A DNA stretch of 64,000 bases, from assembly GCA_035501475.1 (NCBI GenBank), contig DATJWE010000230.1:595-64594 (forward strand), read 5' to 3'. The stretch is from Puia sp. (GTDB taxonomy: Bacteria; Bacteroidota; Bacteroidia; Chitinophagales; Chitinophagaceae). Shown piece by piece: positions 4,383 through 25,345 of the stretch (position 1 is the first letter of the stretch; each line of letters begins with the position of its first letter). The notes under the pieces are model-generated. The model worked only from the letters and a program-made list of their open reading frames with translations, ran no database searches and was not told the origin of the DNA. The translations under genes and the position numbers were made by a program.

Positions 4383-4511
4383 GACATCGCCCAATCATTC
4401 AGGGTTATATTTCTGATTTCCCATAATAAAAACTAATGATTAAATTGAAGAGTGCTGTAGCACTTTCCTTTTTCCCAATTGTTGTCTTCTTTGTCAAAGC
4501 TGACCCCAAGC

Positions 4512-7475
4512 ATGCGAAGGATTGCAATCATATTCCTGTTGACCTGCCTGATCAGTGATGAATGTTTATCACAACAATATTCATTCGTTCATTATACTCC
4601 AAGAGATGGCCTGGTAAGTAACCATACCAAACTGATGTTCCAGGACAAAAAAGGGCTTTTGTATATCTCCACTGATGGTGGTCTGAGCATATATGATGGC
4701 ATACGATTTACCAACTATACTACCGATGATGGCTTAGCAACCAACATCATTAACGATATCGTGGAGATGGGAGATGACTCAGTTTGGATTATACCAAATT
4801 CTCCAAAGCTGCACTATCTGTCAAATGGACTGATCAAGGATATCGTTACTAGCGATGGATTTTATCCGGTCATCAACAAACTCATCAGGGCCAGCGACGG
4901 TTATTATTATGCGCTCGCCGACGAAGGACTGTTCCGGTTTGAAAAAAATCGTTTTGTGAAGATTGATCTTGTCGACAGCGCTGGCAAAGACATCGGCCGT
5001 TTTTTCATAAACGCAGTAGAATTCAACGGCAAGTTGCTCATTGTTACTGATCCCAATATTCATCCTTTGTCAGGACCCGGGCGACTGATCGTGTACGATT
5101 TCAAAAGTAGAAAAGCTGTCGCGGGCCAATCCCAGCTAGTTCGTTCCATCGTGGTTTCGCCGAAAGGAGATATCCTCCTCGCGACAAAAGAAGGGATTAA
5201 AAAAGTAGATGTGGCCTTCCTAAACCAGAATAAAATTCGCTTTAGTGTTTTGCCACCTGTCTATTCGACCACCGAAAATGTGCTCGCCGACTATTTGTAT
5301 TTTGATCATCAGAAAAACTTCTGGTTAAATTCACCAACAGGATTTATCAAAATAGATCCGTACGGGTTGTCAAAAACATTTTCTGTCAAAAACGGGCTCC
5401 CCGTGAACAACTATATTTCTGTTTTTGAGGACAAAGAAAATATTTTATGGTTTGCCGACGGACAAGCTGGCATCAGTAAAATGGTCAACACTCAATTTGA
5501 ATTGAATACTGAACTGAAACCGGGGTTTAATGCTAATGATGTTTATGCCGACGGGAGAACAGACAGTGTGTGGTTTCTGGATATCGCTCATAGCAAATTA
5601 CTATTGCTATCAGAAAAGGAGTCAAAGGAATTTGAATTTTTGCCCGGTGTATCCCACACCAATTTCCGTCTCATTGCAGCCAGGGGAAATAAAGTTTACC
5701 TGGCTGACCTCTTCAAAGTATTTGAATGCAGTTTTATTGATGGGAATAAGATTCGGCTCAAGGAAATGTATTCAGACGATATGAATCATGCTGTTACTTC
5801 GGGAATCACCCGAATAATGCCCGACAAATATGGCAATCTTATTCTTTCTTCCGACAGCATAACCGTGTTGCAACAGAACGGGAAGCTGATTTCTTATCCG
5901 CTTGGATATTATGCAGATAATTTTGCTCTCACAGCCGACGACAGAATTTGGGTAATTACGCGGTCCAACAGGTTATTTTTATTTCGTATTCATCCTGATG
6001 ATCAGGATCATTACCTGGAACTTCTGCACCTGTATTTCGCAGAATTGCCTTATAAAAATCCCCGGTCAATTTGTGTTGATAAAAAAGGAAATGTATGGAT
6101 AGGAACCAGGGATCGTGGACTCTTTTGCTTGTTTTTTAATGGACAAACCATCCTTTCGTGGAAACAGGTTACGACAAAAGATGGTCTGTCTGACAATTTT
6201 ATTTCTTTTCTCCATTGCGATGGGGATGATAATATCTGGGCCTGTTCGCCGGGAGGTTTGGATAAAATACAATTGACGAACAATGGTTTTTTTATTGAGC
6301 GCGTTACTGGTAGTAGTGGTCTTTATCAAAGCATTTCAAGAGTGCAGTCCAACAAAAACAATGAACATTGGGCAATATCCGGAGCAGGTGTAATCAAAAC
6401 AACAGACCATACGCTCCCAAATAATTTTCAACCGAAAATTATTTTCAGAGAAATATTCGAAGGAAAAAATAGGCTGAATATCAAATCAGCTACACCTTCA
6501 CTTTTCTACAATCAAAATAATCTAAGTTTTTCTGTGGCTGCTCCGAGTTTTATAGATGAAAGCCAGATTCGTTTCAGTTATCTGCTGAATGGAAGCAGTA
6601 ACAAAGCATGGAGCGATACGACATCTCAGGCACTGATCAATTTTGTAAATCTTTCGCCAGGGGAATATACACTCCGTGTAAAAGCCATTTTCATGAATAA
6701 CCTTTATCCTAGCCCCGAAACCGCTTACGCTTTTATTATCCATCCACCCTGGTGGCAGACCGCATGGTTTCGAATTGGGTTGGCTTTGTTATTTGTGGTC
6801 ATTGTGTGGTTAACTGTTCGTAGTTATTATCAGAGAAAATTATATCAACAACAGGTCTTATTGGAAAAACAACAGGCTGTTGATAAAGAAAGAACCAGAA
6901 TCGCTGCCGATATGCATGATGATCTCGGCTCGGGCTTATCTACGATTCGCTTCCTGGGTGAAAAAGTAAAACGAAATGTGTTCAGCGAAATAACGAGGGA
7001 TGATATTGAAAAAATGCAGCTCACTTCCATCGAACTCATCGACAAGATGAACGAGATCATCTGGACCATGAATGAAAAAAATGATTCGCTTGAAAACCTG
7101 GTTTATTATACAAGAACCTATGCCCTGGAATATTGTGCTGAAAATAATATCAATTGTACCATCCATTTGCCGGAAAATATTCCTGTCATCCCCGTAAGTG
7201 GAGAAACAAGAAGAAATATTTTTTTAACAGTCAAAGAAAGTCTTCACAATATTGTCAAGCATGCCGAAGCTAAAAATGTGGAAATTACTGTCGGGGTTTC
7301 AAAAAGCCTGGATATAACGATCAGGGACGATGGAAAAGGATTTGACAAGGACGATGATACTGAAGAAGGCAATGGCTTACGCAATATGCAGAAAAGAATC
7401 GAATCGATTGGAGGAGAAATAACCATTAAAAATGAAATGGGTGTAACAGTTGCATTGAGAACTCCGCTTGGCTGA
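4512..7475 (+). CDS. Periplasmic propeller/Y_Y_Y sensor histidine kinase (HisKA_3 type), cassette A
   Basis: Signal/TM MRRIAIIFLLTCLI and repeated two-component-regulator-propeller units. Y_Y_Y domain (IRFSYLLNGSSNKAWSD...GEYTLRVKA), TM helix WWQTAWFRIGLALLFVVIVWL, H-box RTRIAADMHDDLGSGL, and HATPase_c GNGLRNMQKRIESIGGEI. The ORF opens at 4479 (TTG); the first ATG is at 4512. Confidence 0.9.
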   Translation: MRRIAIIFLLTCLISDECLSQQYSFVHYTPRDGLVSNHTKLMFQDKKGLLYISTDGGLSIYDGIRFTNYTTDDGLATNIINDIVEMGDDSVWIIPNSPKLHYLSNGLIKDIVTSDGFYPVINKLIRASDGYYYALADEGLFRFEKNRFVKIDLVDSAGKDIGRFFINAVEFNGKLLIVTDPNIHPLSGPGRLIVYDFKSRKAVAGQSQLVRSIVVSPKGDILLATKEGIKKVDVAFLNQNKIRFSVLPPVYSTTENVLADYLYFDHQKNFWLNSPTGFIKIDPYGLSKTFSVKNGLPVNNYISVFEDKENILWFADGQAGISKMVNTQFELNTELKPGFNANDVYADGRTDSVWFLDIAHSKLLLLSEKESKEFEFLPGVSHTNFRLIAARGNKVYLADLFKVFECSFIDGNKIRLKEMYSDDMNHAVTSGITRIMPDKYGNLILSSDSITVLQQNGKLISYPLGYYADNFALTADDRIWVITRSNRLFLFRIHPDDQDHYLELLHLYFAELPYKNPRSICVDKKGNVWIGTRDRGLFCLFFNGQTILSWKQVTTKDGLSDNFISFLHCDGDDNIWACSPGGLDKIQLTNNGFFIERVTGSSGLYQSISRVQSNKNNEHWAISGAGVIKTTDHTLPNNFQPKIIFREIFEGKNRLNIKSATPSLFYNQNNLSFSVAAPSFIDESQIRFSYLLNGSSNKAWSDTTSQALINFVNLSPGEYTLRVKAIFMNNLYPSPETAYAFIIHPPWWQTAWFRIGLALLFVVIVWLTVRSYYQRKLYQQQVLLEKQQAVDKERTRIAADMHDDLGSGLSTIRFLGEKVKRNVFSEITRDDIEKMQLTSIELIDKMNEIIWTMNEKNDSLENLVYYTRTYALEYCAENNINCTIHLPENIPVIPVSGETRRNIFLTVKESLHNIVKHAEAKNVEITVGVSKSLDITIRDDGKGFDKDDDTEEGNGLRNMQKRIESIGGEITIKNEMGVTVALRTPLG

Positions 7476-7494
7476 ATTCAATAGGCAATTGACA

Positions 7495-7576
7495 ATAGAC
7501 AATAGGCAATAAGCAAATTTCGAATGGGAAGATCTTAAACATTGCCCTTGTCTGTTGCCTATTGCTTATTGTCTAT
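7495..7576. repeat. Long imperfect inverted repeat (22-nt arms, 38-nt spacer) built from CAATAGG/CAATAAG units
   Basis: The left arm ATAGACAATAGGCAATAAGCAA (7495-7516) pairs with the right arm TTGCCTATTGCTTATTGTCTAT (7555-7576) at 20 of 22 Watson-Crick positions, plus one G-U. Confidence 0.8.
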
Positions 7577-7592
7577 AACTTTCATCCTATTG
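7576..7592 (+). promoter_or_regulatory. Cassette promoter-like motif TAACTTTCATCCTATTG upstream of regulator A
   Basis: One of seven copies of TAAC(C/T)TTnnT(T/C)(A/C)TATT(G/T). It lies 32 nt before the ATG at 7625. Confidence 0.45.
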
Positions 7593-7624
7593 TCGCCTCC
7601 TGATTGTGTTACTAAATTTATCAT

Positions 7625-8251
7625 ATGATCCCCATTAAAGTTTGCATTGTTGAAGACCTGAAAGTGGTGCGTGAGGGAATATCGAGCCTGCTTGCCTTGG
7701 ACGAACGATTTGAAATGCTGAAAGCATTCTCAGATGCTGAAAGTGCTGCCAGGGAATTGCCTGCCTGGCAGCCGGACATTGTGATCATGGACATCAACCT
7801 TCCGGGAATGAATGGCATTGAGTGCATAAAAAAAGTGAAACCCATTTGTCCACATACCCAATTCATGATGTTCACCATCTATGAAAATGATGAAAAAGTT
7901 TTCGATGCGCTGGAAGCCGGTGCAAGCGGGTATCTGTTAAAGAAAACGCCTCTCTCAAAAATTGTTGAATCACTGGTTGAACTTCATGAAGGCGGTGCAC
8001 CCATGAGCATGCAGATCGCACGCAAGGTCATCGAAAAAATGCAGGGTGACAAAACAAAAGAAGATATCAGTGTTCTTACTTCACGTGAAAAGGAAGTTTT
8101 GGAATGCCTTGCAAAAGGCTGGCTATATAAAGAAATCGCAAATAAACTAAACATAACCATTGGAACCGTCCGGCAGCACATTCATAATATTTATGACAAG
8201 CTTCATGTACAAAACAGGACGGAGGCGCTGAACAAGTTGCTCAAGAAATAA
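7625..8251 (+). CDS. NarL/LuxR-family response regulator, cassette A
   Basis: Receiver (IVIMDINLPGMNGIE) plus GerE-type HTH (LTSREKEVLECLAKGWLYKEIANKLNITIGTVRQHIHNIYDKLHV). Confidence 0.95.
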   Translation: MIPIKVCIVEDLKVVREGISSLLALDERFEMLKAFSDAESAARELPAWQPDIVIMDINLPGMNGIECIKKVKPICPHTQFMMFTIYENDEKVFDALEAGASGYLLKKTPLSKIVESLVELHEGGAPMSMQIARKVIEKMQGDKTKEDISVLTSREKEVLECLAKGWLYKEIANKLNITIGTVRQHIHNIYDKLHVQNRTEALNKLLKK

Positions 8252-8269
8252 AAAAAAATTCACTACCGG

Positions 8270-8289: not shown

Positions 8290-8365
8290 TGAAGGGATAT
8301 TTTATGCCTGCCCGTATCTCATGAATCCGTTGTTACGACTAACTCAATCACCATATAAACACAAC

Positions 8366-10387
8366 ATGAAAAACATCTTTCTTTTTTTATTTTTTTCAGC
8401 CTGTTTGTCGTCGATTCGGTCGGCAGGCCAGCAACCTCCAAAAGAAGATGCCCAAGCTATACTGGCCAGGGCACAGAAGATGCTGGACTCTGTGGCAAAA
8501 GCCAGGGGAATAAAAAGTCCTGATTTAAAAAGCATGACTGCTAACATGCCTAGTACGATGGGAACAAGTTTATCCAAACCCGACAGCCTTAAGTATTCCA
8601 TTCCACCGAGAAACGAAGGAGCACTTGCAGCCATTCCCCAAAAAACGTTATCGAAAGATGATTTAAAAAATTTTATCACAGGAGTCGATAAAAGATTGAC
8701 TGACATTCTCAAAAACGCAGGTGCTCAACTCCCCAATGTAGAATCATACGATGCAGGCACTTTATGCCAGGGAGCGATTATGAATCTCTTGCAAGGTGGT
8801 GGTGACGAAACCGCATGGCTGGCCATAAAAGCTATAGAAAAGGCTCCCGGAAATATTCTCGTCTTAAATAACTGCGGAGCCGTTTTAAATGGTTGCGGTT
8901 TTCAGCCCGTTGCTGTCCCTGTATTGCAAATAGCGCTGGACAAATCACCCAACAATAGCACCATTCAAAATAATTTGGGGCAGGCCTATATTGCATTGGG
9001 TGACGTACAAAAAGCGATGCTATATCTTCAGCAGTGTATCACAAAATCACCCCAAAATCCTCACGCCAATTTTTCGCTGGCTTGTATTTACAATTCAAGA
9101 GGAGACAAGGCCTCTGCATTAAAGTATGTTGAAAACTCTTTGCGCGGATCTTTCTCCGATGGCGCCTGGCATCTCCTTTACAAATTGAAAAAGGATCCAA
9201 AACTGATGGACTATATGAAAGATCGCTACCAGCAGCCAGTATATTTTGATGAAGACAAATATCACCTGCCGATGCAGTGTGAAAAAGTAGCCGACATTGG
9301 TGACAAGCAGGGTGAATATAAAAAATATCACACGATGGTTGAATCTGCCAAAAGACAAATGATGCAGATAGCAAATGAAGAAATGGAACTTGGAAAAAAA
9401 TCAATGCAGGAAAATATACAGAACTCAAGACAAAGCAATATTGCCAATGCGCCTTTTGCAGAATTGGGAAGCGCCATGCTGCTGGATATCTCGAACAAGA
9501 TGACAGAAGATGGGGGCCCTGAGATTGGTAAAAGACAAAAGGAATATAGGGACTCAATAAAAAGTCTGAATGACGAATACCTGAAGAAAAGAAACAATGC
9601 GCATTCCTGTCAGGAAGAAACAGGCCTGGCAAATCAATACATGGAGAAGATGGCTTTTGTCACGACGGAATACCAGAAAGCTTATCTGAGAATCTATAAA
9701 GATTATTATACTGATAATATTTTCTGGGGATTTTTTGCATATCCCGATGAACATATTAAGAAAGGCTTTTTTTGCAAATATGCGGCGAGCCTACTGGCTG
9801 TATTATCCCAACTTGCGGAAACCCATTTTTTAACCACCTGCGAAGCGCCTCCTGAAGTAGAAAAAGACACTGATAAAGTAGAAATACCTCGGCCTGATTG
9901 CCCAATCAATGTCGACCTGAATGTGATTGTTGGAAGCCTGCATCTTGATTGTGAAAAAATAAAATTCAGCACAAAAAGAGAATTTGGTGAAATAGGATTG
10001 CTCTTGGATGTAGAACATACATTCAATAAACACAGAACCACTATTGTAGTCGGCGCCGGGGTGGATGTGACTTTTGAAAAATCAGTAGGTAATCTCAAGG
10101 GAGAAGCGAGTGCAGCAGGAAAAATGCAATACTTCCTGACATTCGACGGAACCAGGCCTGCAGACATGGGCATGATCTGGAAAGGGGGAGTTTCATATAA
10201 GGAACAAATAACGAATGATTACGGTTTCAAAAACATTACTACGACAGATGCAGACTATACGATGACGACTACGTTAAGTGTGGTCAACGGATATGGTTTC
10301 GAAGGGGGAATTTATAAGCAGATAGATAAGGTCATGGGTATTCCTCCTGAGAAACAGATGAACCAGAATGTAAAAATCTACAAATAA
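8366..10387 (+). CDS. Exported TPR / coiled-coil protein with a Cys-bracketed beta-rich C-terminal domain (function unknown), cassette A
   Basis: Signal peptide MKNIFLFLFFSACLSSIRSAGQ at the internal ATG 8366. TPR units (NNLGQAYIALGDVQKAMLYLQQCITKSPQNPHANFSLACIYNSRGDKASALKYVENSL) and a K/E/Q-rich helical middle. The C-terminal domain starts at CPINVDL...LDCEKIKF. It is a full-length paralog of 20776-22869. Confidence 0.8.
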   Translation: MKNIFLFLFFSACLSSIRSAGQQPPKEDAQAILARAQKMLDSVAKARGIKSPDLKSMTANMPSTMGTSLSKPDSLKYSIPPRNEGALAAIPQKTLSKDDLKNFITGVDKRLTDILKNAGAQLPNVESYDAGTLCQGAIMNLLQGGGDETAWLAIKAIEKAPGNILVLNNCGAVLNGCGFQPVAVPVLQIALDKSPNNSTIQNNLGQAYIALGDVQKAMLYLQQCITKSPQNPHANFSLACIYNSRGDKASALKYVENSLRGSFSDGAWHLLYKLKKDPKLMDYMKDRYQQPVYFDEDKYHLPMQCEKVADIGDKQGEYKKYHTMVESAKRQMMQIANEEMELGKKSMQENIQNSRQSNIANAPFAELGSAMLLDISNKMTEDGGPEIGKRQKEYRDSIKSLNDEYLKKRNNAHSCQEETGLANQYMEKMAFVTTEYQKAYLRIYKDYYTDNIFWGFFAYPDEHIKKGFFCKYAASLLAVLSQLAETHFLTTCEAPPEVEKDTDKVEIPRPDCPINVDLNVIVGSLHLDCEKIKFSTKREFGEIGLLLDVEHTFNKHRTTIVVGAGVDVTFEKSVGNLKGEASAAGKMQYFLTFDGTRPADMGMIWKGGVSYKEQITNDYGFKNITTTDADYTMTTTLSVVNGYGFEGGIYKQIDKVMGIPPEKQMNQNVKIYK

Positions 10388-10395: not shown

Positions 10396-11502
10396 ATGCG
10401 TAAAATATTTTTATTGATTTTATTCTTTTCTTCTGTGAATTGCATACTCGCCCAGGAAGCCTGCAATGATGCGCTTATCCTCCAGGTCAAAGGCAGTTGG
10501 AAAAAAGACCCTGATGCAAACATGAATGCCGGTAAAAATATAACTGTTATCAATAATCGAATTGACAATATCAGCGAGCTTTTTAAAACAGCATACCCGG
10601 ATCCAAGAGGAATTGAAGCGAAATGGTACCGAAGCATGGGAGCCTACCAAATCAACAAGAAAATAACTGCTTACAGCTTTCAATCATTGTATTTACCCTG
10701 GTATTGCAACCAACACCTGAAAAAAATGATGAAAAGTGACGAAACCGGAACCTGGGTCATTGTATCTGTCAACAGTTTCGGCGATTTCTTAACTGACCAA
10801 TACGATATGCTTCAAATACATGTTCATGAAAATCCTGTATACCTGTTGCCCAAACAAAATGGTGAATGGAAGGGTTATCCACTGTATCAAACACGTGCGT
10901 GGCGGGAAAGAAATTATTGCATTATTATTATGCATGAAGGGCAATTGCCCTGGAAAGCCATCACCCAGGAACAATACCTGAAAGCTATCCGGGCACAATG
11001 GGAAGAACAAAAAACCAAATTATCCGCCGGTTATGCCATCAATGAAGACAATCTAAAAAAATCAATTGCCGATAATGAAAAGAATCCCAACCTAAAAGAG
11101 GCAGACAAAGAAAAAATAAATGCATCCCTGCAGAAGCAATTGGAGGAAATTCAAAAAGAAGAAAAGGAAAATGCACCGAAAATGAACAAAGGTATGGATG
11201 ACAAAATCGCTGTAATTGATAATTATTTAAGTAAAACAAACTCTTCGACTCTCCAGGGGCCGGCAATCATGGATCGAAATACGGCCGGAGATTTTAGAGG
11301 AACATTTTCTACGGATGCAACAAAAGGAATTACACTTGTAACAGTTAACCCGGATTACTTCGATAACAAATTGCCTGACTATACGCCGCAACTAATGGTT
11401 CTGCTCTGGCGTTGGGACAATAATGCGCCATCGATGGATTTTAAAAAACAATTCGAAGAAAATTTCCCCGTTGAAAAATTAAGAGCCATGCTCGATAAAT
11501 AA
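10396..11502 (+). CDS. Exported hypothetical protein (368 aa)
   Basis: Signal peptide MRKIFLLILFFSSVNCILAQ and an 8-nt gap to the upstream gene. It has a central K/E-rich helical segment and no domain I recognise. Confidence 0.7.
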   Translation: MRKIFLLILFFSSVNCILAQEACNDALILQVKGSWKKDPDANMNAGKNITVINNRIDNISELFKTAYPDPRGIEAKWYRSMGAYQINKKITAYSFQSLYLPWYCNQHLKKMMKSDETGTWVIVSVNSFGDFLTDQYDMLQIHVHENPVYLLPKQNGEWKGYPLYQTRAWRERNYCIIIMHEGQLPWKAITQEQYLKAIRAQWEEQKTKLSAGYAINEDNLKKSIADNEKNPNLKEADKEKINASLQKQLEEIQKEEKENAPKMNKGMDDKIAVIDNYLSKTNSSTLQGPAIMDRNTAGDFRGTFSTDATKGITLVTVNPDYFDNKLPDYTPQLMVLLWRWDNNAPSMDFKKQFEENFPVEKLRAMLDK

Positions 11503-12935: not shown

Positions 12936-12952
12936 TAACCTTCATTCTATTG
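12936..12952 (+). promoter_or_regulatory. Cassette promoter-like motif TAACCTTCATTCTATTG upstream of lipoprotein A
   Basis: A copy of the shared 17-nt motif, 43 nt before the ATG at 12996. Confidence 0.45.
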
Positions 12953-15237: not shown

Positions 15238-15254
15238 TAACTTTCGTTCTATTT
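15238..15254 (+). promoter_or_regulatory. Cassette promoter-like motif TAACTTTCGTTCTATTT upstream of kinase B
   Basis: A copy of the shared 17-nt motif; the last base is T rather than G. Confidence 0.4.
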
Positions 15255-18300: not shown

Positions 18301-18314
18301 CTTTAGTTATATTG
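18298..18314 (+). promoter_or_regulatory. Cassette promoter-like motif TAACTTTAGTTATATTG upstream of regulator B
   Basis: It overlaps the kinase B stop codon and lies 31 nt before the ATG at 18346. Confidence 0.45.
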
Positions 18315-19019: not shown

Positions 19020-19036
19020 TAACCTTTGTTATATTG
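19020..19036 (+). promoter_or_regulatory. Cassette promoter-like motif TAACCTTTGTTATATTG upstream of lipoprotein B
   Basis: A copy of the shared 17-nt motif, 44 nt before the ATG at 19081. Confidence 0.45.
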
Positions 19037-19080: not shown

Positions 19081-20502
19081 ATGAAAAAAATCATAACCAT
19101 TACCATTACCTTATCCCTGATTTTATTTGTGCTCTGTTGTAAAAAAACAGACCTTCTTCCTTCGGGCAATAACAACAACAACAACAACAATAACAACAAT
19201 AATAATGTAACCCCTACTGCCACTGCTACCGGCACTCCGACCGGCCCGGCAATAAGCAAGTTCATACCATCCGGTGGCGGAAGCATTGCTACTGCCGATG
19301 GGAGGGTTGAGCTCGATTTTCCGAATGGTGCATTGCCTAATGGCGATACCATTACCATTCAAAATATTACGAACAATGGGCCCAATGGCCTGGGAGACGC
19401 CTATCGCTTTTTGCCTGAAGGATTAACATTCGCTAATCCTGTGACTGTAAAATTTCATTACGCAGACAGTGATGTTAATGGCACTATTCCCCAGTTGCTT
19501 GACATAGCATACCAGGAAGCGTCAGGCATATGGAAAGTAGCAGGAACCGCTTCTCTGGATGAATCATCGAACACTGTTAGCGTAACAACAACCCATTTTA
19601 CTGATTGGAATATTTTTACCAATTTACAAATCGAACCTGCTGACCCTATCAACCTTATTGGAGGAAACGAACTCAGGATAAATAAGACACAGGCATTTGA
19701 AATAAAGTACGTTGCTTCAACGAATGATGATGAGTTATCCGCTCCAAAGTCAGGTTCTACTACCTACAGCTCTGTTTCGTCTGAAATTGTAAACAATTGG
19801 TTAGTAAATAACCAGATCAACGGAAGCACAACATACGGAAAGATAGTCCCCGACAACACTATGAGTAGCGGATATGCTTCATGTACTTACACAGCCCCCG
19901 CACAAGTCCCGCCTTCCCAAAACCCAGTTACCATAAGTGTAAAGCTGCAGAATTTAGGTTATATCGATAGTCGTGTCGGTGCTTTCACTAATCTTTCATT
20001 GACCCGCTCGGTAAAAATCATAGGTAATGACTACACATATAATATTGTAATGAATTATGAAAATAACGAAGTTGATGGTGGCCTTCTAGGCTATCCATTT
20101 ACAGAAACGGATAAGGCTACGTTTACTGTAGTTGTAAAAAATGGAACTGATGTATCAATTACAAATATCGATAATTCGGCTTCCAGCGTAACACCAGGTA
20201 TGCAAACGGACGCTTTCAGCGGTCTCACCAGCACATTGGTCGATCCCGGTGAGCAATGGTTTGTTAGTTCAGGTTCGGGAGTAGTGTATAGTTTCCTTAA
20301 TCCACCAGCTGTCAACCTTACGATTAATTTTGATGTTAGCAAAGAGAAAGAACCAACATTTAATCGCAGTGATGGCGTATCCATTGGAGGTTATCCCATT
20401 GGCCTTGCACAACAGAGTTTCTCTTTTACGTTAAATGACAGCACACAAACATATACAGGAGATATTACATGGAATGCAACTGTAACGCCTGTCAGTCATT
20501 AA
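19081..20502 (+). CDS. Probable lipoprotein with a poly-Asn linker and a ZU5-like domain ending in HFTD (function unknown), cassette B
   Basis: Signal MKKIITITITLSLILFVLCC followed by N13. IPSGGGSIATADGRVELDFPNGAL...YRFLPEGLTFANPVTVKFHY...IAYQ...TTTHFTDWNIF aligns with 12996-14441. Confidence 0.75.
   Translation: MKKIITITITLSLILFVLCCKKTDLLPSGNNNNNNNNNNNNNVTPTATATGTPTGPAISKFIPSGGGSIATADGRVELDFPNGALPNGDTITIQNITNNGPNGLGDAYRFLPEGLTFANPVTVKFHYADSDVNGTIPQLLDIAYQEASGIWKVAGTASLDESSNTVSVTTTHFTDWNIFTNLQIEPADPINLIGGNELRINKTQAFEIKYVASTNDDELSAPKSGSTTYSSVSSEIVNNWLVNNQINGSTTYGKIVPDNTMSSGYASCTYTAPAQVPPSQNPVTISVKLQNLGYIDSRVGAFTNLSLTRSVKIIGNDYTYNIVMNYENNEVDGGLLGYPFTETDKATFTVVVKNGTDVSITNIDNSASSVTPGMQTDAFSGLTSTLVDPGEQWFVSSGSGVVYSFLNPPAVNLTINFDVSKEKEPTFNRSDGVSIGGYPIGLAQQSFSFTLNDSTQTYTGDITWNATVTPVSH
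19168..19206 (+). repeat. AAC/AAT trinucleotide tract encoding 13 consecutive Asn
   Basis: The sequence is aat(aac)6aat(aac)2(aat)3, in frame within 19081-20502. Confidence 0.95.
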
Positions 20503-20647: not shown

Positions 20648-20664
20648 TAACTTTTGTTCTATTG
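20648..20664 (+). promoter_or_regulatory. Cassette promoter-like motif TAACTTTTGTTCTATTG upstream of the TPR protein B gene
   Basis: A copy of the shared 17-nt motif. Confidence 0.45.
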
Positions 20665-20775
20665 TGATTCTTCATAGCAGAATCTATTTTTATCAGGGCT
20701 GAATATCCAAATGAAATCGACCAGCAAACTCTCCCGTGATCTTTTTAACTACGAATGCTAAAAAACAAAGAAGGC

Positions 20776-22869
20776 ATGAAACGAAATTGTTTTCTCCTGC
20801 TGCTGGTTTCTTCCTGTTTTGTTATGGGGCAATCATCTCCTTCGCAGGCCGATCTAGAAAAAATTCAAAGGGAGGCGCAGCAAAAAGCAGAGGCAATAAA
20901 GAACGACCCAAAGTATAAGCAATACCTTGATAAATCCAATACATCTAGCACTGACCAACAACCGCAGATAACGCAGATGAATATTCCTGCCAACCCTTTT
21001 TCTCTTCAGAAACCGGATACGGCATTTTTATCAAAAATGAAAACACCGGAAAAAAACCTGAAGGCATTGGCATCGATTCCCGCAAAACCCATGTCGAAAG
21101 CAGATCTAAAACTCTTTCTATCAGATATAAAAAAGAAATTAGCCCCTGTCGTGCAAAGCAGCTATGGAACGAAACCACTCAACACTTCCGGCAAATCTGC
21201 CGCTTCCATTTCCGGCGAAGCGGTATTGTCATTTTATGCTGGTAAGCCCGAATATGCATTACTGTTAGGAATGGAATCCGTATCTCTCGACCCTGAAAAT
21301 GAAAATGCACTCAACAATTATGCGGCCATTCTGGGTCTTTGTGGTTTTCCATATAAAGCTGTTCCCATCCTGGATTATCTCAAACAGCAGGAGCCGGATA
21401 ATTCAACCGTCAATAATAACCTGGGGCAGGCCTATTTCCTGATGGGTGAGGTGGCAAAAGCTGCTGATTACCTCAGGCAGGCTGTTGCAGTAACACCTTA
21501 TCATCCAAATGCAAATATGTCACTCGCTTACCTCGCTTATATTAATGGCGATCAAACTGCGGCTGTACAATACTGTGAGAACTGTTTGCGCGGTGGATTT
21601 ATCAGTCACGCGTGGAATATGCTCAAATCGATCAAACCGGATGTGAAACTAATGGATTATATCAGGCATCGTTACAAGCAACCTGAAACTTTTAATGAGC
21701 ATAAGTATGAATTATTGCCCCAATGCCGCACAACAGACGAAGTGCCGAAGTTGCGTGCCCTTTACCAGGATTACCATACCATGCTCATGAGGCTGCAGGC
21801 CAAATACGAAAAAATGGCCAATGAAGAAGGAAAGATCTCAGCGCAAAACATCCAAAACAATATCATGCAAAAAGTCAAAAACGGTGGCGACCCGATGCGG
21901 CCTTTCGGCTGGTTTGCGAATATTGTGCTGGGTGATATTAGTAAAACACACGCGGAAAAACTGCTTGAAATGGACAAATATGATAAGCAGTTCGAGGCGA
22001 GACTCAAGGAACTGAATGATGCATATGAAGCAAAGAAAAAGGAAGTGAATGACAAATATGGCATATCTGACGATGGAGAAGGCGCTGCCAATACGGATAA
22101 TTCAGCCGCACGCTGCAATGCACTGAATGAACTCAACAATAGTTATCTGCCCGAATTTGCAGATTTGAGAGAAGCCTGGCAAAAAAAATGGATTTATGAA
22201 GAAAGAGATTATTTTAATGATGCTTCTTTCTGGTGTTATGTGGCTTCACTCGATGATCACCAATACCGGAAAGATTTTTATCAGCTGGTCAGTGAGTACC
22301 TGGGCCTGATGATAAAACTCAATCATACGCGCCTCATTGCATGCATTCACCGCAACAGTGATACAACGCACAAAAGACTAGATTCATTACAGTTCCAGGA
22401 AGGCAAATGCCCACTTGCAGCAAAAATTCCCATCGAGCAGATAAAATCGAGCATTAGCCTTAATTGTGAAAAAATAGGATTGGATGCGGAGATCGGAGAA
22501 GGGGTATCATTGGTAGCCACTCATTCTTTTGGCGGTTCCACAACACTTGCATTGGAAGCCGGCGTTCCTTTAATTCCTAAAGTGTTAAGCGGATCCATGC
22601 AATTCTATATCACTTTTGGCGGGGGAGCCCCGATGGATATCGGCGTGAAATGGGAAGCAGAGATGAAATTACCAGAGGCCCTGGGTGGTACCAATTCGGC
22701 GGGCTGGGGGCTGGGACTGAATTCCGGTGTTACTTTTACCGGAGAGGGTAAAATCCAGGCTGCATCTTCTAACTGGATTCAACAAAATGTTTTTGGATTG
22801 GATCCGCCGGCACCGCAAATCAATCCCAATGTTAAAATGTACAATTCCGGTAACAGTAGTGAAAAATAA
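20776..22869 (+). CDS. Exported TPR / coiled-coil protein with a Cys-bracketed beta-rich C-terminal domain (function unknown), cassette B
   Basis: Signal MKRNCFLLLLVSSCFVMGQ at ATG 20776 (the ORF opens at 20755). TPR units NNLGQAYFLMGEVAKAADYLRQAVAVTPYHPNANMSLAYLAYINGDQTAAVQYCENCL. C-terminal CPLAAKI...LNCEKIGL...NPNVKMYN. It is a paralog of 8366-10387. Confidence 0.8.
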   Translation: MKRNCFLLLLVSSCFVMGQSSPSQADLEKIQREAQQKAEAIKNDPKYKQYLDKSNTSSTDQQPQITQMNIPANPFSLQKPDTAFLSKMKTPEKNLKALASIPAKPMSKADLKLFLSDIKKKLAPVVQSSYGTKPLNTSGKSAASISGEAVLSFYAGKPEYALLLGMESVSLDPENENALNNYAAILGLCGFPYKAVPILDYLKQQEPDNSTVNNNLGQAYFLMGEVAKAADYLRQAVAVTPYHPNANMSLAYLAYINGDQTAAVQYCENCLRGGFISHAWNMLKSIKPDVKLMDYIRHRYKQPETFNEHKYELLPQCRTTDEVPKLRALYQDYHTMLMRLQAKYEKMANEEGKISAQNIQNNIMQKVKNGGDPMRPFGWFANIVLGDISKTHAEKLLEMDKYDKQFEARLKELNDAYEAKKKEVNDKYGISDDGEGAANTDNSAARCNALNELNNSYLPEFADLREAWQKKWIYEERDYFNDASFWCYVASLDDHQYRKDFYQLVSEYLGLMIKLNHTRLIACIHRNSDTTHKRLDSLQFQEGKCPLAAKIPIEQIKSSISLNCEKIGLDAEIGEGVSLVATHSFGGSTTLALEAGVPLIPKVLSGSMQFYITFGGGAPMDIGVKWEAEMKLPEALGGTNSAGWGLGLNSGVTFTGEGKIQAASSNWIQQNVFGLDPPAPQINPNVKMYNSGNSSEK

Positions 22870-22874
22870 CGGCA

Positions 22875-23951
22875 ATGTATATACTAATTTATTCAAAAAA
22901 AAACCTAATCATCGTTTTCCTATTTGCCGGTTATTCTATGATCGCGCAAAGCAGTTCCAGGCAAGCTGTATACTATCCGAATGCTGTAGTAATGGATAGC
23001 AAAAATAATTTGTATGTCAGTTGTAATTCACAGCAGCCCGACATTGTAAAAATTACACCTGATGGCCAGTCAACGGAGCTTATCTCTACAGTATTGTACC
23101 GGCACAGACCATCGCAAAAATGGGCATCCATCGATTTGTTCACTCCCGCAGGCATGGCCATTGATGAGGATGATACTATTTATATAGCAGACAAGGGAGC
23201 AGGAGATATATTGAAGGTTTCACCGGATGGGAAGGTTACCATTCTTGCAGGATATAAGGGCCACGTGATCAAAGACGGTCCGCTCTCCATTGCGTCTTTT
23301 AAAAGACCTTTTTTTATAGCGATTGACCGTAAAAAAAATATTTATGTAAGCGATGAAGGCGGTGACGAGAGAACGAACACCGAATATGGAGTAATCCGAA
23401 AAATTTCAGCCCGGGGTGAAGTGACCACACTGAAAGATCCTGCCAGCACTGAACTACATTTTGATGCAGCGGGTATGGTTTGTGATAAGGATGGAAATCT
23501 TTTTGTGTGTGACAGGACTGGCCGCTGCATAAAAAAAATTACGCCGGATGGAGATGTTTCTATATTGGGTGGACTTTGTGGAAAAAGAAAGACCGATCCC
23601 ATTTATAAGGAAGGAGATATTCAGACCGCAGAGTTTATGGAGCCATGGTACATTGCCTTGGACAAAGAAGGCCGGATTTATTTTTCCGATATACGGGTGA
23701 ACAGGATTATTAAATTAGCAGATAAAAAAATATCTACGGTAGCCGGTAATAGCAGGATTGACATGCAGCACAGCAATATCCAGGGATATTCTGAAGCCGG
23801 TTATGCAGATGGGCCAGCAAAGACAGCGCTCTTTAACGAACCCCTGGGAATTGTTTTCGATAAAAATGGGAACCTGCTCATTGCAGACGGGATGAACCAT
23901 TGCATCCGCAAACTTTCAAATGATGGGATGGTAAGCACATATTATAAATAG
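22875..23951 (+). CDS. Exported NHL-repeat beta-propeller protein
   Basis: About six repeats of the form PAGMAIDEDDTIYIADKGAGDILKVSPDGKV and PLGIVFDKNGNLLIADGMNHCIRKLSNDGMV. It has a signal peptide and a 5-nt gap to the upstream gene. Confidence 0.85.
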   Translation: MYILIYSKKNLIIVFLFAGYSMIAQSSSRQAVYYPNAVVMDSKNNLYVSCNSQQPDIVKITPDGQSTELISTVLYRHRPSQKWASIDLFTPAGMAIDEDDTIYIADKGAGDILKVSPDGKVTILAGYKGHVIKDGPLSIASFKRPFFIAIDRKKNIYVSDEGGDERTNTEYGVIRKISARGEVTTLKDPASTELHFDAAGMVCDKDGNLFVCDRTGRCIKKITPDGDVSILGGLCGKRKTDPIYKEGDIQTAEFMEPWYIALDKEGRIYFSDIRVNRIIKLADKKISTVAGNSRIDMQHSNIQGYSEAGYADGPAKTALFNEPLGIVFDKNGNLLIADGMNHCIRKLSNDGMVSTYYK

Positions 23952-24020
23952 AAAGGCTTTGTGCAGTTAAGGTATAATTTCCTTGTGGTTCCTTGCCATC
24001 AGGCCCGAATTTTTGCCCTT

Positions 24021-24037
24021 TAACTTTCGTTATATTG
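24021..24037 (+). promoter_or_regulatory. Cassette promoter-like motif TAACTTTCGTTATATTG upstream of OM barrel B
   Basis: A copy of the shared 17-nt motif, 36 nt before the ATG at 24074. Confidence 0.45.
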
Positions 24038-24073
24038 ACTGGACTGATTATTTGTTTTAACTTTTAGAAAAAA

Positions 24074-24760
24074 ATGAAAAACACCCTCTTCCTGGCAATT
24101 ATACTTTTGGTATCATGGCAAATCAGCATGGCCCAGCACGGAACTGACAGCACAAAAAATAAAAAACCACCCACGCAACATCATTCGATCGGAATCGGCC
24201 TGAAAGCGGGACTTAACTTCGCCAATGTAACGAATGCTTCGTCCATCAATAGCAGCCATGAAACAGGTTTTCATGCAGGAATAATATATGCTCCTCAATC
24301 CAAATCCATTATCGGTTCTTCTACTGAATTACTTTTTTCGAGACAGGGTTATAACTATGACTCGGGAACCAATACCGGAACAGTAAACCTGGATTATATT
24401 ATATTCCAACAGCTCATGGTCATTAACATTACCAAATTCGTCGCGATACAGCTGGGAGCCCAGTTTGCCTATCTCATCAATGCCAAGGTAGATAGCAGCA
24501 ACCAATACAATACAGGCAATGCTACAGCCAACGAGATCCTGAGTTATTATAACCGGTATGACTATGGCTTTGGCGCAGGTGTGGAAGTCCATCCTGTCAT
24601 GGGCCTGCTGGTTGGAGCGAGGTATAATATCAGTCTGAACAACCTGTATAAATCGCCGACTTCTTTTCCTTCAGGCGGTGTGCCTTCTTTTATTCCGAAT
24701 ACCAGTAGCATCAATCTGAAAAATAACCTGATCCAGATTTATGCGGGCTGGCGGTTCTGA
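24074..24760 (+). CDS. Small outer-membrane beta-barrel (porin-family / OMP_b-brl_2-like), cassette B
   Basis: IGLKAGLNFANVT...GARYNISLNNLY...IQIYAGWRF. It is a paralog of 14482-15141. Confidence 0.8.
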   Translation: MKNTLFLAIILLVSWQISMAQHGTDSTKNKKPPTQHHSIGIGLKAGLNFANVTNASSINSSHETGFHAGIIYAPQSKSIIGSSTELLFSRQGYNYDSGTNTGTVNLDYIIFQQLMVINITKFVAIQLGAQFAYLINAKVDSSNQYNTGNATANEILSYYNRYDYGFGAGVEVHPVMGLLVGARYNISLNNLYKSPTSFPSGGVPSFIPNTSSINLKNNLIQIYAGWRF

Positions 24761-24778
24761 CTTATAAAACCATCAGTT

Positions 24779-25345
24779 ATGAAACCATTAACCATTGGCC
24801 TTATCCTAATCATTTGCATTTATAACGTAAATGCACAAACGAATAATACCGCAACGGCAAAAGCACCTGATCCCCAGTTTTTAAATCACGTGTATTTTTA
24901 TCATGCAGATTCCCTGGCCTCATTGGAACAAATTGAGGCACGCTACAAATCAAAACCAAAAGGATTTGGAGGCAATGAGACCGGGTTTGAGATGAATGGA
25001 GAAAAATCCCCCGTCCGTATCAAGGCGGGGGATACTATCCGTTTCGCCGTGAAGATGAACGGAATGATGAGTGATCCGACAACAATGATCAAGCTATATC
25101 ATTTCGACTCCAGAAAAGGAAACCGGGAGGCCATTATGAATAGCCAGTCATCCATGTACAGCAAGGCGAAAGAACCTGAGAACACTATTGCTTTCAATGT
25201 TCAAAAATCCGGAAACGATGTTTTTATTATCATGCCGGCATCTGCACTCGGCACAGGCGAATATGGTTTCCTGAATATGATGCTGATGAATGGCGGCGGG
25301 ATGAAGATGAGTTATACTGTATTTGCTTTCGGTGTTGATCCCTGA
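24779..25345 (+). CDS. Exported hypothetical protein (188 aa)
   Basis: Signal peptide MKPLTIGLILIICIYNVNAQ, 18 nt after the barrel gene. I recognise no domain. Confidence 0.65.
   Translation: MKPLTIGLILIICIYNVNAQTNNTATAKAPDPQFLNHVYFYHADSLASLEQIEARYKSKPKGFGGNETGFEMNGEKSPVRIKAGDTIRFAVKMNGMMSDPTTMIKLYHFDSRKGNREAIMNSQSSMYSKAKEPENTIAFNVQKSGNDVFIIMPASALGTGEYGFLNMMLMNGGGMKMSYTVFAFGVDP

Follow-up and report, generated by a model that had tools for sequence, protein, structure and literature searches.

The region described here, a part of the chromosome of a Puia (Chitinophagaceae) MAG from a soil bacterium, is probably best read, from its sequence and that of its relatives, as an envelope regulon, specific to Chitinophagaceae and controlled by two-component systems, of which an ancient duplication left two copies. 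The window, that is, the whole 64-kb stretch of DNA that was analysed, contains two tandem cassettes, A and B, which together comprise 14 ORFs, all on the + strand (Table 1), and no further copies of the cassette genes were found elsewhere in its 64 kb. The original prediction had placed all 14 ORFs where they are found, and its propeller/Y_Y_Y kinases, NarL-type regulators, NHL propeller and small outer-membrane barrels are all recovered by Pfam models. A signal peptide is visible at the N-terminus of every non-regulatory cassette product, as had been stated, and the two lipoproteins show lipobox cysteines.

Table 1. Coordinates of the genes, promoter boxes and other features of cassettes A and B in the window.
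Feature	Position (nt)	Strand	Remarks
Sensor kinase A	4479..7475	+	Pfam Reg_prop, Y_Y_Y, HisKA_3, HATPase_c
Long hairpin	7479..7571	+	Lies after the kinase A stop codon and before box 1
Box 1, TAACTTTCATCCTATTG	7576..7592	+	-7 box TAAATTT 7613-7619; regulator A ATG 7625
Regulator A, NarL/FixJ-type	7625..8251	+	Pfam REC, GerE
TPR-X A, exported	8321..10387	+	Pfam TPR
368-aa partner protein, exported	10396..11502	+	Cassette A
456-aa protein, exported	11512..12882	+	Cassette A
Box 2, TAACCTTCATTCTATTG	12936..12952	+	-7 box TAGTTTT 12973-12979; lipoprotein A ATG 12996
Lipoprotein A (481 aa)	12996..14441	+	Lipobox LISGC, ZU5 domain, beta-rich C-terminal domains
H167-F168-T169 of lipoprotein A	13494-13502	+	Predicted self-cleavage site
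Small outer-membrane beta-barrel A (219 aa)	14482..15141	+	Pfam OMP_b-brl_2, E 5e-16
Box 3, TAACTTTCGTTCTATTT, one mismatch	15238..15254	+	Upstream of kinase B
Sensor kinase B	15316..18300	+	Pfam; architecture as kinase A
Box 4, TAACTTTAGTTATATTG	18298..18314	+	Overlaps the kinase B stop codon; -7 box TAAATTT 18334-18340; regulator B ATG 18346
Regulator B, NarL/FixJ-type	18346..18975	+	Pfam REC, GerE
Box 5, TAACCTTTGTTATATTG	19020..19036	+	-7 box TAGCTTT 19057-19063; lipoprotein B ATG 19081
Lipoprotein B (473 aa)	19081..20502	+	Lipobox VLCC, poly-Asn linker
HFT motif of lipoprotein B (aa 172-174)	19594-19602	+	
Box 6, TAACTTTTGTTCTATTG, consensus form	20648..20664	+	-7 box TATTTTT 20685-20691; upstream of TPR-X B
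TPR-X B (704 aa), exported	20755..22869	+	Pfam TPR
NHL beta-propeller (358 aa), exported	22875..23951	+	Pfam NHL, E 3e-20
Box 7, TAACTTTCGTTATATTG	24021..24037	+	-7 box TAACTTT 24058-24064; barrel B ATG 24074
Small outer-membrane beta-barrel B (228 aa)	24074..24760	+	Pfam OMP_b-brl_2, E 7e-15
188-aa protein, exported, Met-rich subfamily	24779..25345	+	Cassette B

All-against-all BLASTP between the cassettes gives exactly the five full-length paralog pairs that had been proposed: the kinases (39.5% identity, full length), the regulators (72.1%, against about 70% by the earlier hand count), the TPR-X proteins (29.8% over 714 aa), the lipoproteins (30.8% over 429 aa) and the barrels (49.5%). Orthologs in other Puia MAGs are far closer than these in-window paralogs. 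The TPR-X of locus L004 is 62% identical to TPR-X A, and TPR-X B has orthologs of 81–82% identity in loci L010 and L018 (82% in L010), whereas TPR-X A and B share 30%. Since L004 also keeps the order of the window, with cassette A followed by a B-type kinase, these comparisons indicate that the duplication of the cassette is old, in agreement with the original prediction.

Both sensor kinases are about 1000 aa in length. In kinase A, which likely starts at the ATG at 4512, a signal or TM segment is followed in the periplasm by Reg_prop propellers and Y_Y_Y; a hydrophobic TM segment at approximately aa 760–782 then leads to HisKA_3 and HATPase_c. The kinase cores of A and B are 61% identical and their sensors 35%, and the recognition helices of regulators A and B are nearly identical. 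The hairpin downstream of kinase A (RNA fold of -34.1 kcal/mol, z = -5.5, with none of 200 shuffles as stable) may be a terminator or an insulator.

The two cassettes are tied together by a 17-bp promoter box with the consensus TAACYTTYRTYMTATTG, the last three bases of which form the -33 TTG of the Bacteroidota promoter and copies of which lie upstream of seven transcription units, both cassettes counted. With at most one mismatch the box has seven matches in the 64 kb, all on the + strand and all upstream of cassette genes; a scan with a tolerance of two mismatches gave nine matches compared with 0.49 expected, and none of 100 shuffles reached nine. A further 30 copies occur in the related loci of other genomes, mostly 30–45 nt upstream of cluster genes, and of the 88 ORFs that follow an exact 17-mer match in metagenome contigs, 49 are members of the cassette families. 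This shared box lends direct sequence support to the signal regulation that had been predicted. Kinase A has no box upstream and TPR-X A has none of its own; TPR-X A is probably co-transcribed with regulator A.

The box could instead be recognized by an alternative sigma factor or by some other activator, with the two-component systems being members of the regulon rather than its controllers, a reading that we regard as distinctly unlikely. It would fit the position of the box, which is asymmetric, without dyad symmetry, and abuts position -33. It would also fit the triad-only loci, in which the box occurs and no two-component system lies within 10 kb, and the lack of a box at kinase A. However, a TAnnTTT element of normal sigma-A type, in agreement with the -7 consensus of Bacteroidota (PMC9723704), follows the box at the normal distance (19–21 nt 3' in the alignment) in six of the seven window units, 19–20 nt from the box in these six, the kinase B promoter (box 3) being the one without a canonical -7 box at the usual distance, and no sigma factor gene is present in or beside the cassettes. 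Moreover, the commonest gene behind the box is that of the regulator A/B orthogroup (18 of the 88 metagenome downstream ORFs), and all 18 regulators found behind it in metagenomes are 54–72% identical to regulator A. In the genome loci the box precedes six of eight regulators of this orthogroup versus none of 23 of the distant NarL type. That this orthogroup stands behind the box most often is the usual pattern of positive autoregulation and argues for control by the two-component systems.

TPR-X A is annotated as a 688-aa ORF and probably starts at M16 (nt 8366), since the 100%-identical database protein has 673 aa. Its N-terminal half consists of a signal peptide, a disordered linker and TPRs at about aa 100–300, and its C-terminal half is modelled by AlphaFold as a four-helix bundle (aa 323–498), a Cys-containing linker and a beta meander (aa 530–662), the beta domain being of moderate model confidence (pLDDT 60–77). 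The TPRs of the original prediction were borne out by Pfam, whereas its coiled coil gives way to a predicted bundle of four long helices and a beta meander. The family has conserved cysteines and comprises 251 representative clusters at E ≤ 1e-10. The TPR segments also give weak, sub-threshold matches to BcsC, PilW and PrsT models.

The 368-aa protein, whose gene adjoins that of TPR-X in most related loci, has two globular parts separated by a charged helical segment, and two of its cysteines are invariant. The NHL propeller gene occupies in cassette B the slot that 368 occupies in cassette A, and NHL and 368 alternate in the slot after TPR-X across the related loci. N-terminal fusions to TPR-X are found for 368 in at least 11 representative clusters and for NHL in at least nine; gene fusion ties both proteins to TPR-X. 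Among the relatives of the 456-aa protein, some match Lipocalin_4 or DUF5004, the lipocalin-like scores being weak.

A neighbourhood survey of 46 related loci in other Chitinophagaceae MAGs confirmed that the families co-occur beyond this locus, with gene order conserved across genera. Either 368 or NHL accompanies TPR-X in 31 of 36 loci and the 456 family does so in 27 of 36, so that the most constant core is TPR-X, then 368 or NHL, then 456, and not the five duplicated families that had been proposed for this role, although these do co-occur. Cluster content varies between genomes: ZU5 (12 loci), the barrel (9) and the 188 family (8) each occur in only a third to half of the loci, counted among the 25 that have 8 kb or more of downstream sequence. 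The HisKA_3/NarL pair is often found, with a HisKA_3 kinase in 18 of the 26 loci with enough upstream sequence; in many loci a different TPR-sensor kinase, paired with a distant NarL regulator, is found in addition to the propeller type or in its place.

Hypothetical exported proteins restricted to particular lineages are frequent in Bacteroidota, and the region might hold no functional module at all, only two ordinary two-component systems that lie by chance beside unrelated exported hypotheticals, or else belong to an already described pathway such as a PUL, a T9SS cargo set, a pilus or adhesin operon or polysaccharide export. The variable cluster composition and the sub-threshold TPR matches would agree with this explanation. 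These readings are nevertheless largely refuted already, and we give them hardly any credence: gene order is kept between genera, fusions are known and the shared promoter box is regulon-specific. Pfam, NCBIfam and PADLOC models were run on the proteins of the window, PDB sequence profiles on the family alignments and Foldseek on two TPR-X models only, and none of these searches matched a described pathway, as had been anticipated. By Pfam and NCBIfam, the cassettes of the window lack a SusC/D pair, a T9SS C-terminal domain (Por_Secre_tail), pilin, adhesin domain, glycoside hydrolase and synthase genes. The 368-aa, 456-aa and 188-aa proteins and the C-terminal domain of TPR-X have no Pfam, NCBIfam, PADLOC or PDB sequence match, and the C-terminal half of TPR-X has no fold match in Foldseek with the two models.

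The ZU5-like character that had been assigned to the lipoprotein family holds for lipoprotein A (Pfam E 4e-7; 30.7 bits, cut-off 21), while the match of lipoprotein B is weak (E 0.06). The original prediction recognized no catalytic motif in any non-regulatory product; this has to be corrected, as both lipoproteins carry an HF(S/T) motif, which is invariant in the cluster homologs (18 of 18) and which 103 of 120 wider homologs also contain. PIDD and Nup98 are cleaved at an HFS motif, which aligns with the SF/S of FIIND (PMC3210808), and cutting between the F and S of HFS has been demonstrated for microbial GAIN-like domains (bioRxiv 10.64898/2026.05.12.724683). For bacterial ZU5 domains, a role as autopeptidases that release Sec-exported surface proteins has been suggested (PMC3482391). 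The lipoproteins of the window share this self-cleavage motif with ZU5/GAIN domains, and their cleavage is predicted here from sequence. The ZU5 lipoprotein family is wider than the module and stands alone in Niastella, Fibrella and Archangium, and may therefore lack specificity to it. The original reading of the module is supported, with the wider ZU5 family and the many loci with a different TPR-sensor kinase among the points to be corrected.

TPR-X, 368 or NHL and 456 might instead handle cargo, as chaperones, adaptors, export aids or inhibitors for exported effectors, which we consider unlikely. In 16 related loci TPR-X is directly preceded by a gene whose product has a signal peptide, DUF7452 and a C-terminus that varies, being Hcp-like in nine of 22 members (Pfam E 2e-20; the profile of the Hcp-like family matches PDB Hcp3, 3he1, at 2e-8) and an astacin/myroilysin-like metallopeptidase in eight of 22. 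The DUF7452-X/TPR-X/368 triplet is repeated in tandem and followed by a single 456 gene and often by ZU5, 188 or barrel genes, a layout that may be likened to cargo-specific adaptors beside shared machinery, and ZU5 domains have been put forward as the releasing peptidases of Sec-exported toxins (PMC3482391). However, no paper naming DUF7452 was found, and there is no DUF7452 gene in the 64-kb window or in the triad-only loci (L002, L006–L008), so that on this reading the cassettes of the window would be cargo-less or their cargo would be encoded elsewhere. Toxin/immunity pairs and known secretion-system components are likewise lacking.

At the end of cassette B, the 188-aa gene is probably co-transcribed with barrel B, from which it is separated by an 18-nt gap, and the 188 family flanks a barrel gene in about ten other loci. 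Barrel A also matches the NCBIfam TDE1717 family, under its cut-off. The 188-aa subfamily whose genes follow that of the barrel is rich in Met (5–9%, two loops containing MxM or MxxM clusters; 7.4% Met and MxM clusters in the protein of the window), which we take to be reminiscent of periplasmic Cu(I)-binding proteins, and a response of the module to envelope metal stress, for example copper or silver, could be imagined. This is very improbable, as the 188-aa protein has no CusF, CopC or PcoE match in Pfam, NCBIfam or PDB sequences, a second 188 subfamily is not Met-rich, the cassettes encode no efflux pump, P-type ATPase or multicopper oxidase, and propeller/Y_Y_Y sensors are not known as metal sensors.

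For the preferred reading, a regulon of the envelope under two-component control, we propose the following working model. An extracytoplasmic ligand on the propeller sensor would activate the kinase, and sensors A and B, being just 35% identical, probably recognize different ligands. The phosphorylated regulator would then bind the 17-bp box, which overlaps -33 as does a class II activator site, and activate transcription of the structural operons as well as of its own gene; with the recognition helices of both regulators almost the same, the cassettes probably cross-activate. TPR-X would be a scaffold, in the periplasm or associated with the outer membrane, on which its partner (368 or NHL) and the 456-aa protein are held. 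Lipoprotein A would cut itself between F168 and T169 and lipoprotein B between F173 and T174, the lipid-anchored ZU5 piece keeping the C-terminal piece non-covalently and hence in a releasable state, and the barrel and the 188-aa protein would form the outer-membrane end. If this is true, the net effect would be an inducible remodelling of the cell surface.

The two cassettes comprise 14 open reading frames (ORFs) on one strand, at the coordinates of the original prediction, and a Pfam search assigned them the domains that had been named there. Both kinases (about 1000 residues) contain Reg_prop repeats and Y_Y_Y, HisKA_3 and HATPase_c domains, both regulators (about 208 residues) are composed of REC and GerE domains, and TPRs are present in the two exported proteins of about 700 residues, here termed TPR-X (688 residues in cassette A and 704 in cassette B); two OMP_b-brl_2 barrels and one NHL propeller were also found among the cassette products. 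The 368-, 456- and 188-residue exported proteins, which give their lengths as names to the families 368, 456 and 188, had no match in Pfam, NCBIfam or PADLOC. An all-against-all BLASTP comparison of the cassette products returned exactly five full-length pairs, the same five as proposed: the kinases (39.5% identical), the regulators (72.1%), the TPR proteins (29.8%), the lipoproteins (30.8%) and the barrels (49.5%). The 688-residue TPR-X has a 100% identical counterpart in a MAG of Puia sp., a genus of Chitinophagaceae (Bacteroidota). No further copies of the cassette genes occur elsewhere in the window, the rest of which consists of housekeeping genes, with dxs directly upstream and two pirins downstream, and also ileS, gyrB, hemA and others. 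The position next to dxs is also seen in three related loci of other genomes (L004, L009 and L064), and the cassettes are an old chromosomal locus and not a mobile island.

Further features flank the cassettes. Genes for a kinase of the LytS type (His_kinase) and for a LytTR regulator lie just upstream of dxs, and stand-alone homologs of the cassette lipoproteins in Niastella and Fibrella are located within a few kilobases of His_kinase/LytTR genes; this nearness may be a coincidence. A 23-codon ORF for a hydrophobic peptide, MKMKLVIGAVILALVGLASVGFS, lies in the 465 nt that separate the last cassette gene from the pirins; it lacks the 17-bp promoter element described below.

Locations of features in the window and in related loci
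Feature	Sequence	Position	Strand
LytS-type kinase and LytTR regulator	window	435-2234	-
Fourteen cassette ORFs	window	4479-25345	
Cassette A	window	4512-15141	
Hairpin, kinase A to regulator A	window	7479-7571	
Cassette B	window	15316-25345	
Asparagine run of lipoprotein B	window	19168-19206 (aa 30-42)	
Gene of Met-rich 188 protein	window	24779-25345	
23-codon ORF	window	25571-25642	+
Terminator	window	25772-25799	
Two-mismatch box	window	39238-39254	-
Two-mismatch box	window	45939-45955	+
HF(S/T) motif	lipoprotein A	aa 167-169	
HF(S/T) motif	lipoprotein B	aa 172-174	
Stand-alone ZU5 homolog near His_kinase/LytTR genes	L074	2910-4654	
Stand-alone ZU5 homolog near His_kinase/LytTR genes	L075	7128-11508	
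TPR-sensor kinase	L026	5493-7559	-
TPR-sensor kinase	L031	7752-9788	-
DUF7452 gene (example)	L011	2881-4026	

Focusing on the age of the duplication, orthologs of cassette B were found in L010 and L018 (TPR-X 81-82% identical; regulator of L010 89%) and an ortholog of cassette A in L004 (TPR-X 62% and regulator 80% identical). As L004 ends in the start of a B-type kinase, the order of A followed by B is kept in another Puia MAG, and relatives outside Puia exist for both the A-type and the B-type TPR-X. The duplication predates the species that carry these orthologs, in agreement with the old duplication originally proposed.

The conservation of the gene set was surveyed by using a TPR-protein profile to scan a single genome from each species, which gave 70 loci in which ORFs were called and compared with the proteins of the window. 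The strong loci were nearly all from Chitinophagaceae MAGs (Puia, Ferruginibacter, Flavisolibacter, Segetibacter, Lacibacter and 'uncultured Chitinophaga sp.' bins), and the set is conserved as a module. Where 2.5 kb or more of sequence followed the TPR gene, 31 of 36 loci had 368 or NHL, usually directly after that gene, and 27 of 36 had 456; among loci with at least 8 kb downstream, the lipoprotein with a ZU5 domain (hereafter ZU5) was present in 12 of 25, the 188 family in 8 of 25 and the barrel in 9 of 25; and a HisKA_3 kinase and a NarL regulator were present in 18 and 17, respectively, of the 26 loci with at least 6 kb upstream. The recurrent full order is TPR-X, 368 or NHL, 456, ZU5, 188, barrel and 188 (L016, L017, L026, L031, L038, L041 and L044). 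The 368 and NHL proteins take turns in one slot after TPR-X, and they are also fused to the TPR-X N-terminus, 368 in at least 11 and NHL in at least nine representative clusters; the shared slot and the fusions are strong evidence, from gene arrangement, that 368 and NHL work with TPR-X. The original prediction had taken the five duplicated families as the core of the system. Because loci exist that contain only TPR-X, 368 and 456 without the rest (L001, L002 and L006-L008), the constant core is instead this triad. The predicted locus is real, and its interpretation stands with corrections. The ZU5 family is broader than the cluster, with at least 120 homologs, including some from Niastella, Fibrella, Dyadobacter, Archangium and Nitrospirota, and it also occurs without the other families; a check of the neighbourhoods of distant homologs in Niastella, Fibrella and Archangium found no shared partner. 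Many loci also carry a second type of kinase of about 660 residues, with a TPR sensor and HisKA_3, divergent from the structural genes, and the 207-residue NarL regulator beside it is only about 30% identical to the regulators of the window; this pair may provide a second regulatory input.

The AlphaFold model of TPR-X, built from a 21-sequence alignment, had a mean pLDDT of 72.8. It begins with a signal peptide and a disordered linker, followed by TPRs at residues of about 100-300 (pLDDT >90), a four-helix bundle at residues 323-498 in which three helices are about 45 residues long (pLDDT 80-94), a cysteine-containing linker and an antiparallel β-meander at residues 530-662 with three strands of 18-19 residues (pLDDT 60-77). 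Five cysteines are invariant in the C-terminal half, which fits an oxidizing compartment. A Foldseek search with the full-length model returned TPR proteins alone, and residues 305-688 were therefore modelled separately; this part gave nothing significant against the PDB (best E 0.08, TM <0.22) or against a viral library (best E 0.006, TM <0.2). Pore-forming toxins, outer-membrane barrels and ssRNA-phage maturation proteins appeared in the fold lists, all non-significantly, and were set aside. The C-terminal domain has no Pfam model, and a profile search of PDB sequences with TPR-X matched TPR designs only. In an exhaustive profile search, 251 representative clusters were matched at E <= 1e-10 and 453 at E <= 1e-3, so that the TPR-X domain comprises about 250 to 450 clusters at 50% identity. 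Among the matches listed, the full-length ones carry the TPR-X domain behind about 250-330 N-terminal residues or within a protein of about 1000 residues, the latter being mostly recognizable 368 or NHL fusions, and the remaining listed matches are short fragments. TPR-X would serve as a scaffold.

The families 368, 456 and 188 gave only noise in profile searches against PDB sequences, and a G-beta match of the 456 family was rejected as a weak repeat match. In Pfam scans of the individual members, Lipocalin_4 was matched weakly by four of the 20 proteins of the 456 family, and the 368 family gave no consistent match. Kinship between 456 and 188, between 368 and the TPR-X C-terminus and between ZU5 and 188 was also discarded, as the profile-profile alignments covered signal peptides only. 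Four sequence families, namely the C-terminal domain of TPR-X, 368, 456 and 188, thus have no counterpart in Pfam, NCBIfam or solved-structure sequences, and they are candidates for new domain definitions. The 188 family itself falls into two subfamilies, one encoded before the barrel with a KYDTIIVKH extension and one encoded after the barrel that is rich in methionine (5-9%), with MxM clusters in two loops; the latter, which includes the 188 protein of the window, has a methionine pattern reminiscent of Cu(I)-binding loops.

The lipoprotein of cassette A (481 residues) matches the Pfam ZU5 model with 30.7 bits (cut-off 21, E 4e-7), and that of cassette B (473 residues), its full-length paralog, with only 14 bits; the profile of the family matches, weakly, the ZU5 domains of ZO-1 and ankyrin in the PDB. 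The motif HF(S/T) is conserved at the C-terminal end of the ZU5 domain in all 18 cluster homologs; among wider homologs, 103 of 120 have it. In PIDD and Nup98, self-cleavage takes place at an HFS motif, which corresponds in alignment to SF/S of the FIIND of NLRP1 and CARD8 (PMC3210808); for bacterial ZU5 domains, a role as autopeptidases that release Sec-exported surface proteins and toxins has been proposed (PMC3482391); and microbial GAIN-like (MAIN) domains were recently shown to be cut between F and S of HFS, with the fragments staying bound (bioRxiv 10.64898/2026.05.12.724683). Given this conservation and the known cleavage at HFS, cleavage is predicted between F168 and T169 in lipoprotein A and between F173 and T174 in lipoprotein B. 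By profile and motif, the lipoproteins thus appear to fit the self-cleaving ZU5 class, with likenesses to PIDD, FIIND and GAIN in the ZU5 match and the invariant HF(S/T) at the domain end, and to the bacterial ZU5 and MAIN proteins in being exported and tethered to the envelope, as proposed for the former (PMC3482391) and shown for the latter (bioRxiv 10.64898/2026.05.12.724683). The ZU5 domain of the window proteins differs from this class in being N-terminal, directly behind the lipid anchor, so the predicted cleavage would free the C-terminal 300 or so residues, held as a releasable fragment by the lipid-anchored ZU5 piece; in contrast to the ZU5/GAIN class, the part predicted to be released has no recognizable RHS repeats or toxin, adhesion or enzyme domains. 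Within the family, a lipobox is present in the Puia-type members only, and the signal peptides of the Ferruginibacter-type members end in AQ or GQ, for which cleavage by signal peptidase I is expected. Directly behind the lipobox, lipoprotein B has a run of 13 asparagines, a low-complexity tether, and the linker of lipoprotein A is rich in Gly, Thr and Gln and lacks the Asn run. If the cleavage is true, autoproteolytic shedding of surface proteins by bacteria, an idea newly shown for microbial GAIN-like domains, would extend to Gram-negative outer-membrane lipoproteins, and the Bacteroidota lipoproteins with HF(S/T) behind the lipid anchor would form a large predicted self-cleaving set.

Both cassettes share a 17-bp promoter element (the box). 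Allowing up to one mismatch, the pattern TAACYTTYRTYMTATTG occurs seven times in the window, each time on the + strand and ahead of a cassette gene (regulator A, lipoprotein A, kinase B, regulator B, lipoprotein B, TPR-X B and barrel B, in this order boxes 1-7), with none outside the cassettes in 64 kb. With at most two mismatches there were nine matches against 0.49 expected, a number reached in none of 100 shuffles; two of them lie outside the cassettes, the one on the + strand ending 4 nt 5' of the hemA start codon, and by this expectation one or two such matches could be due to chance. The related loci hold 30 further copies, most of them 30-45 nt 5' of TPR-X, regulator, ZU5, 188 or barrel genes or just 5' of accessory exported-protein genes; one lies within a DUF7452 coding sequence (L011) and one has no cluster gene ahead (L020). 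The loci reduced to the triad have exactly one copy each, 44 nt ahead of TPR-X. When all copies were aligned, the terminal TTG fell at the Bacteroidota -33 position and a conserved TAnnTTT, the -7 consensus of Bacteroidota sigma-A (PMC9723704), lay 19-21 nt downstream; the box therefore extends an otherwise normal promoter in the upstream direction and lies at the position of a class II activator site.

At least 120 metagenome contigs (L077-L196) contain the exact 17-mer, and 49 of the 88 ORFs behind it belong to cassette families: the NarL regulator (18), the barrel (15), 188 (nine), 368, TPR-X and ZU5 (two each) and NHL (one). The others include OmpA-family proteins (five), PD40/DPPIV_N-type propellers (three or four) and YadA-head/Peptidase_S74 fibres (two), and the wider regulon is therefore centred on the envelope. 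The box is specific to this regulon and tied to one regulator orthogroup: all 18 boxed metagenome regulators are 54-72% identical to regulator A, and the box is upstream of six of the eight genome-locus regulators of this orthogroup versus none of 23 distant NarL regulators. The recognition helices of the two window regulators are nearly identical, whereas the kinase sensors are only 35% and the kinase cores 61% identical. The regulators would bind the box, and the simplest reading of these sequences is positive autoregulation, with one DNA site common to both cassettes and separate signals feeding in.

With respect to transcription units, no box precedes kinase A, and a strong, nearly perfect hairpin of about 93 nt (-34 kcal/mol, z = -5.5) separates its stop codon from the promoter box of regulator A; this hairpin has no U-run after it and may be a terminator or insulator. 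Box 1 likely drives regulator A, probably together with TPR-X A, 368 and 456, as the gaps are 69, 8 and 9 nt, there is no box before TPR-X A and the layout of L004 is alike. The other likely units are lipoprotein A with barrel A (box 2), kinase B and regulator B (boxes 3 and 4), lipoprotein B (box 5), TPR-X B with NHL (box 6) and barrel B with the 188 gene (box 7). A scan for sigma-70 promoters and intrinsic terminators gave counts at the level of chance, as expected for Bacteroidota, and the sole strong terminator lies past the last cassette gene.

In 16 related loci, a gene for a protein with a signal peptide, a DUF7452 domain (PF24249) and a variable C-terminus lies just upstream of TPR-X (among these loci are L011, L013, L016, L021, L023, L024, L026, L028, L032, L033, L035-L037, L039 and L040). 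The C-terminus is T6SS Hcp-like in nine of 22 members (E 2e-20) and resembles an astacin/myroilysin-like metallopeptidase in eight of 22; it is unusual for an Hcp-like domain to follow a Sec signal peptide. This adjacency, together with triplets of DUF7452-X, TPR-X and 368 that repeat in tandem, supports the alternative that TPR-X and 368 handle DUF7452-type cargo, although the window itself has no DUF7452 gene.

The sensors of the cassettes resemble those of the Bacteroides HTCS, of which the heparin sensor BT4663 is an example with a propeller/Y_Y_Y sensor: a large periplasmic Reg_prop and Y_Y_Y sensor (Reg_prop E 3e-17 and 2e-20, Y_Y_Y E 1e-8 in both kinases) is joined through one TM segment to a cytoplasmic kinase. 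However, the cassette kinases are of the HisKA_3 type with a separate REC and GerE regulator, in place of fused REC and AraC domains, and the regulated genes form no polysaccharide utilisation locus (PUL). A Pfam search found neither REC nor HTH_AraC in the kinases, which end with HATPase_c; without such a receiver or AraC fusion, the system is not an HTCS. HisKA_3 and HATPase_c are above the cut-offs in both kinases, and Response_reg (E 1e-23) and GerE (E 1e-16 to 1e-17) were found in both regulators; together, kinase and regulator form an ordinary two-component system of the NarL class whose sensor is HTCS-like. This system shares with NarX/NarL the classes of kinase and regulator and a regulon in which a common upstream DNA site also marks the gene of the regulator itself, but the box overlaps the Bacteroidota -33 element, and the sensor domain and target genes are unrelated. 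The box is also asymmetric, and it bears no evident resemblance to the NarL heptamer pairs.

The cast of a periplasmic long-helix TPR protein, a β-propeller, an outer-membrane lipoprotein and outer-membrane proteins recalls the envelope-spanning Tol-Pal/CpoB complex, and OmpA-family and PD40 (TolB-like) genes are boxed in the metagenomes. The cassettes nevertheless contain no TolQ, TolR or TolA, no PD40 TolB and no OmpA-like Pal, their propeller being of the NHL type and their lipoprotein of the ZU5 type, and an OmpA-like domain is absent from the proteins of the window; no kinship with Tol-Pal was found by sequence or fold, and Tol-Pal is universal, whereas the cassette genes are lineage-specific and predicted to be inducible. 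With BcsC, PgaA and PelB, TPR-X shares an N-terminal periplasmic TPR array and a C-terminal β-rich domain, with a weak match to the BcsC model in the TPRs only, but its C-terminus is modelled as four long helices and about nine strands instead of a barrel of 16-18 strands, and no synthase or modifying genes are near the cassettes. No cassette product matched the marks of a PUL (SusC/SusD, Plug and glycoside hydrolase families), none of the ten non-regulatory products has a T9SS C-terminal sorting domain, and none matched a PADLOC defence model better than E 0.007; a T9SS-type CTD is present on some accessory genes of other genomes. The defining features of a PUL, a T9SS cargo set, a TPR-barrel exporter, Tol-Pal and the known defence systems are thus missing, and a literature search found no mention of DUF7452, the box sequence or the composition of the cluster.

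In conclusion, the locus is best read as an envelope regulon under two-component control, the output of which would be a remodelling of the cell surface, with shedding of the lipoproteins as a possible part. We consider it rather unlikely that TPR-X, 368 or NHL, 456, ZU5, 188 and the barrel constitute a new Chitinophagaceae envelope machine, switched on through the box by the propeller-sensor kinase and the NarL regulator, that displays and sheds surface proteins via ZU5 or delivers DUF7452 effectors (Hcp-like and astacin-like); for several of its parts, the curated libraries searched contained no related sequence, and one domain is without a match among known structures. Soil and rhizosphere are rich in Chitinophagaceae, the envelope biology of which has been little explored, and a recognizable cis-element with a matching regulator orthogroup opens both signal and response to direct study. 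Even if this were merely an envelope-stress regulon, it would still be of use as a marker and as a model of regulation in the family Chitinophagaceae.
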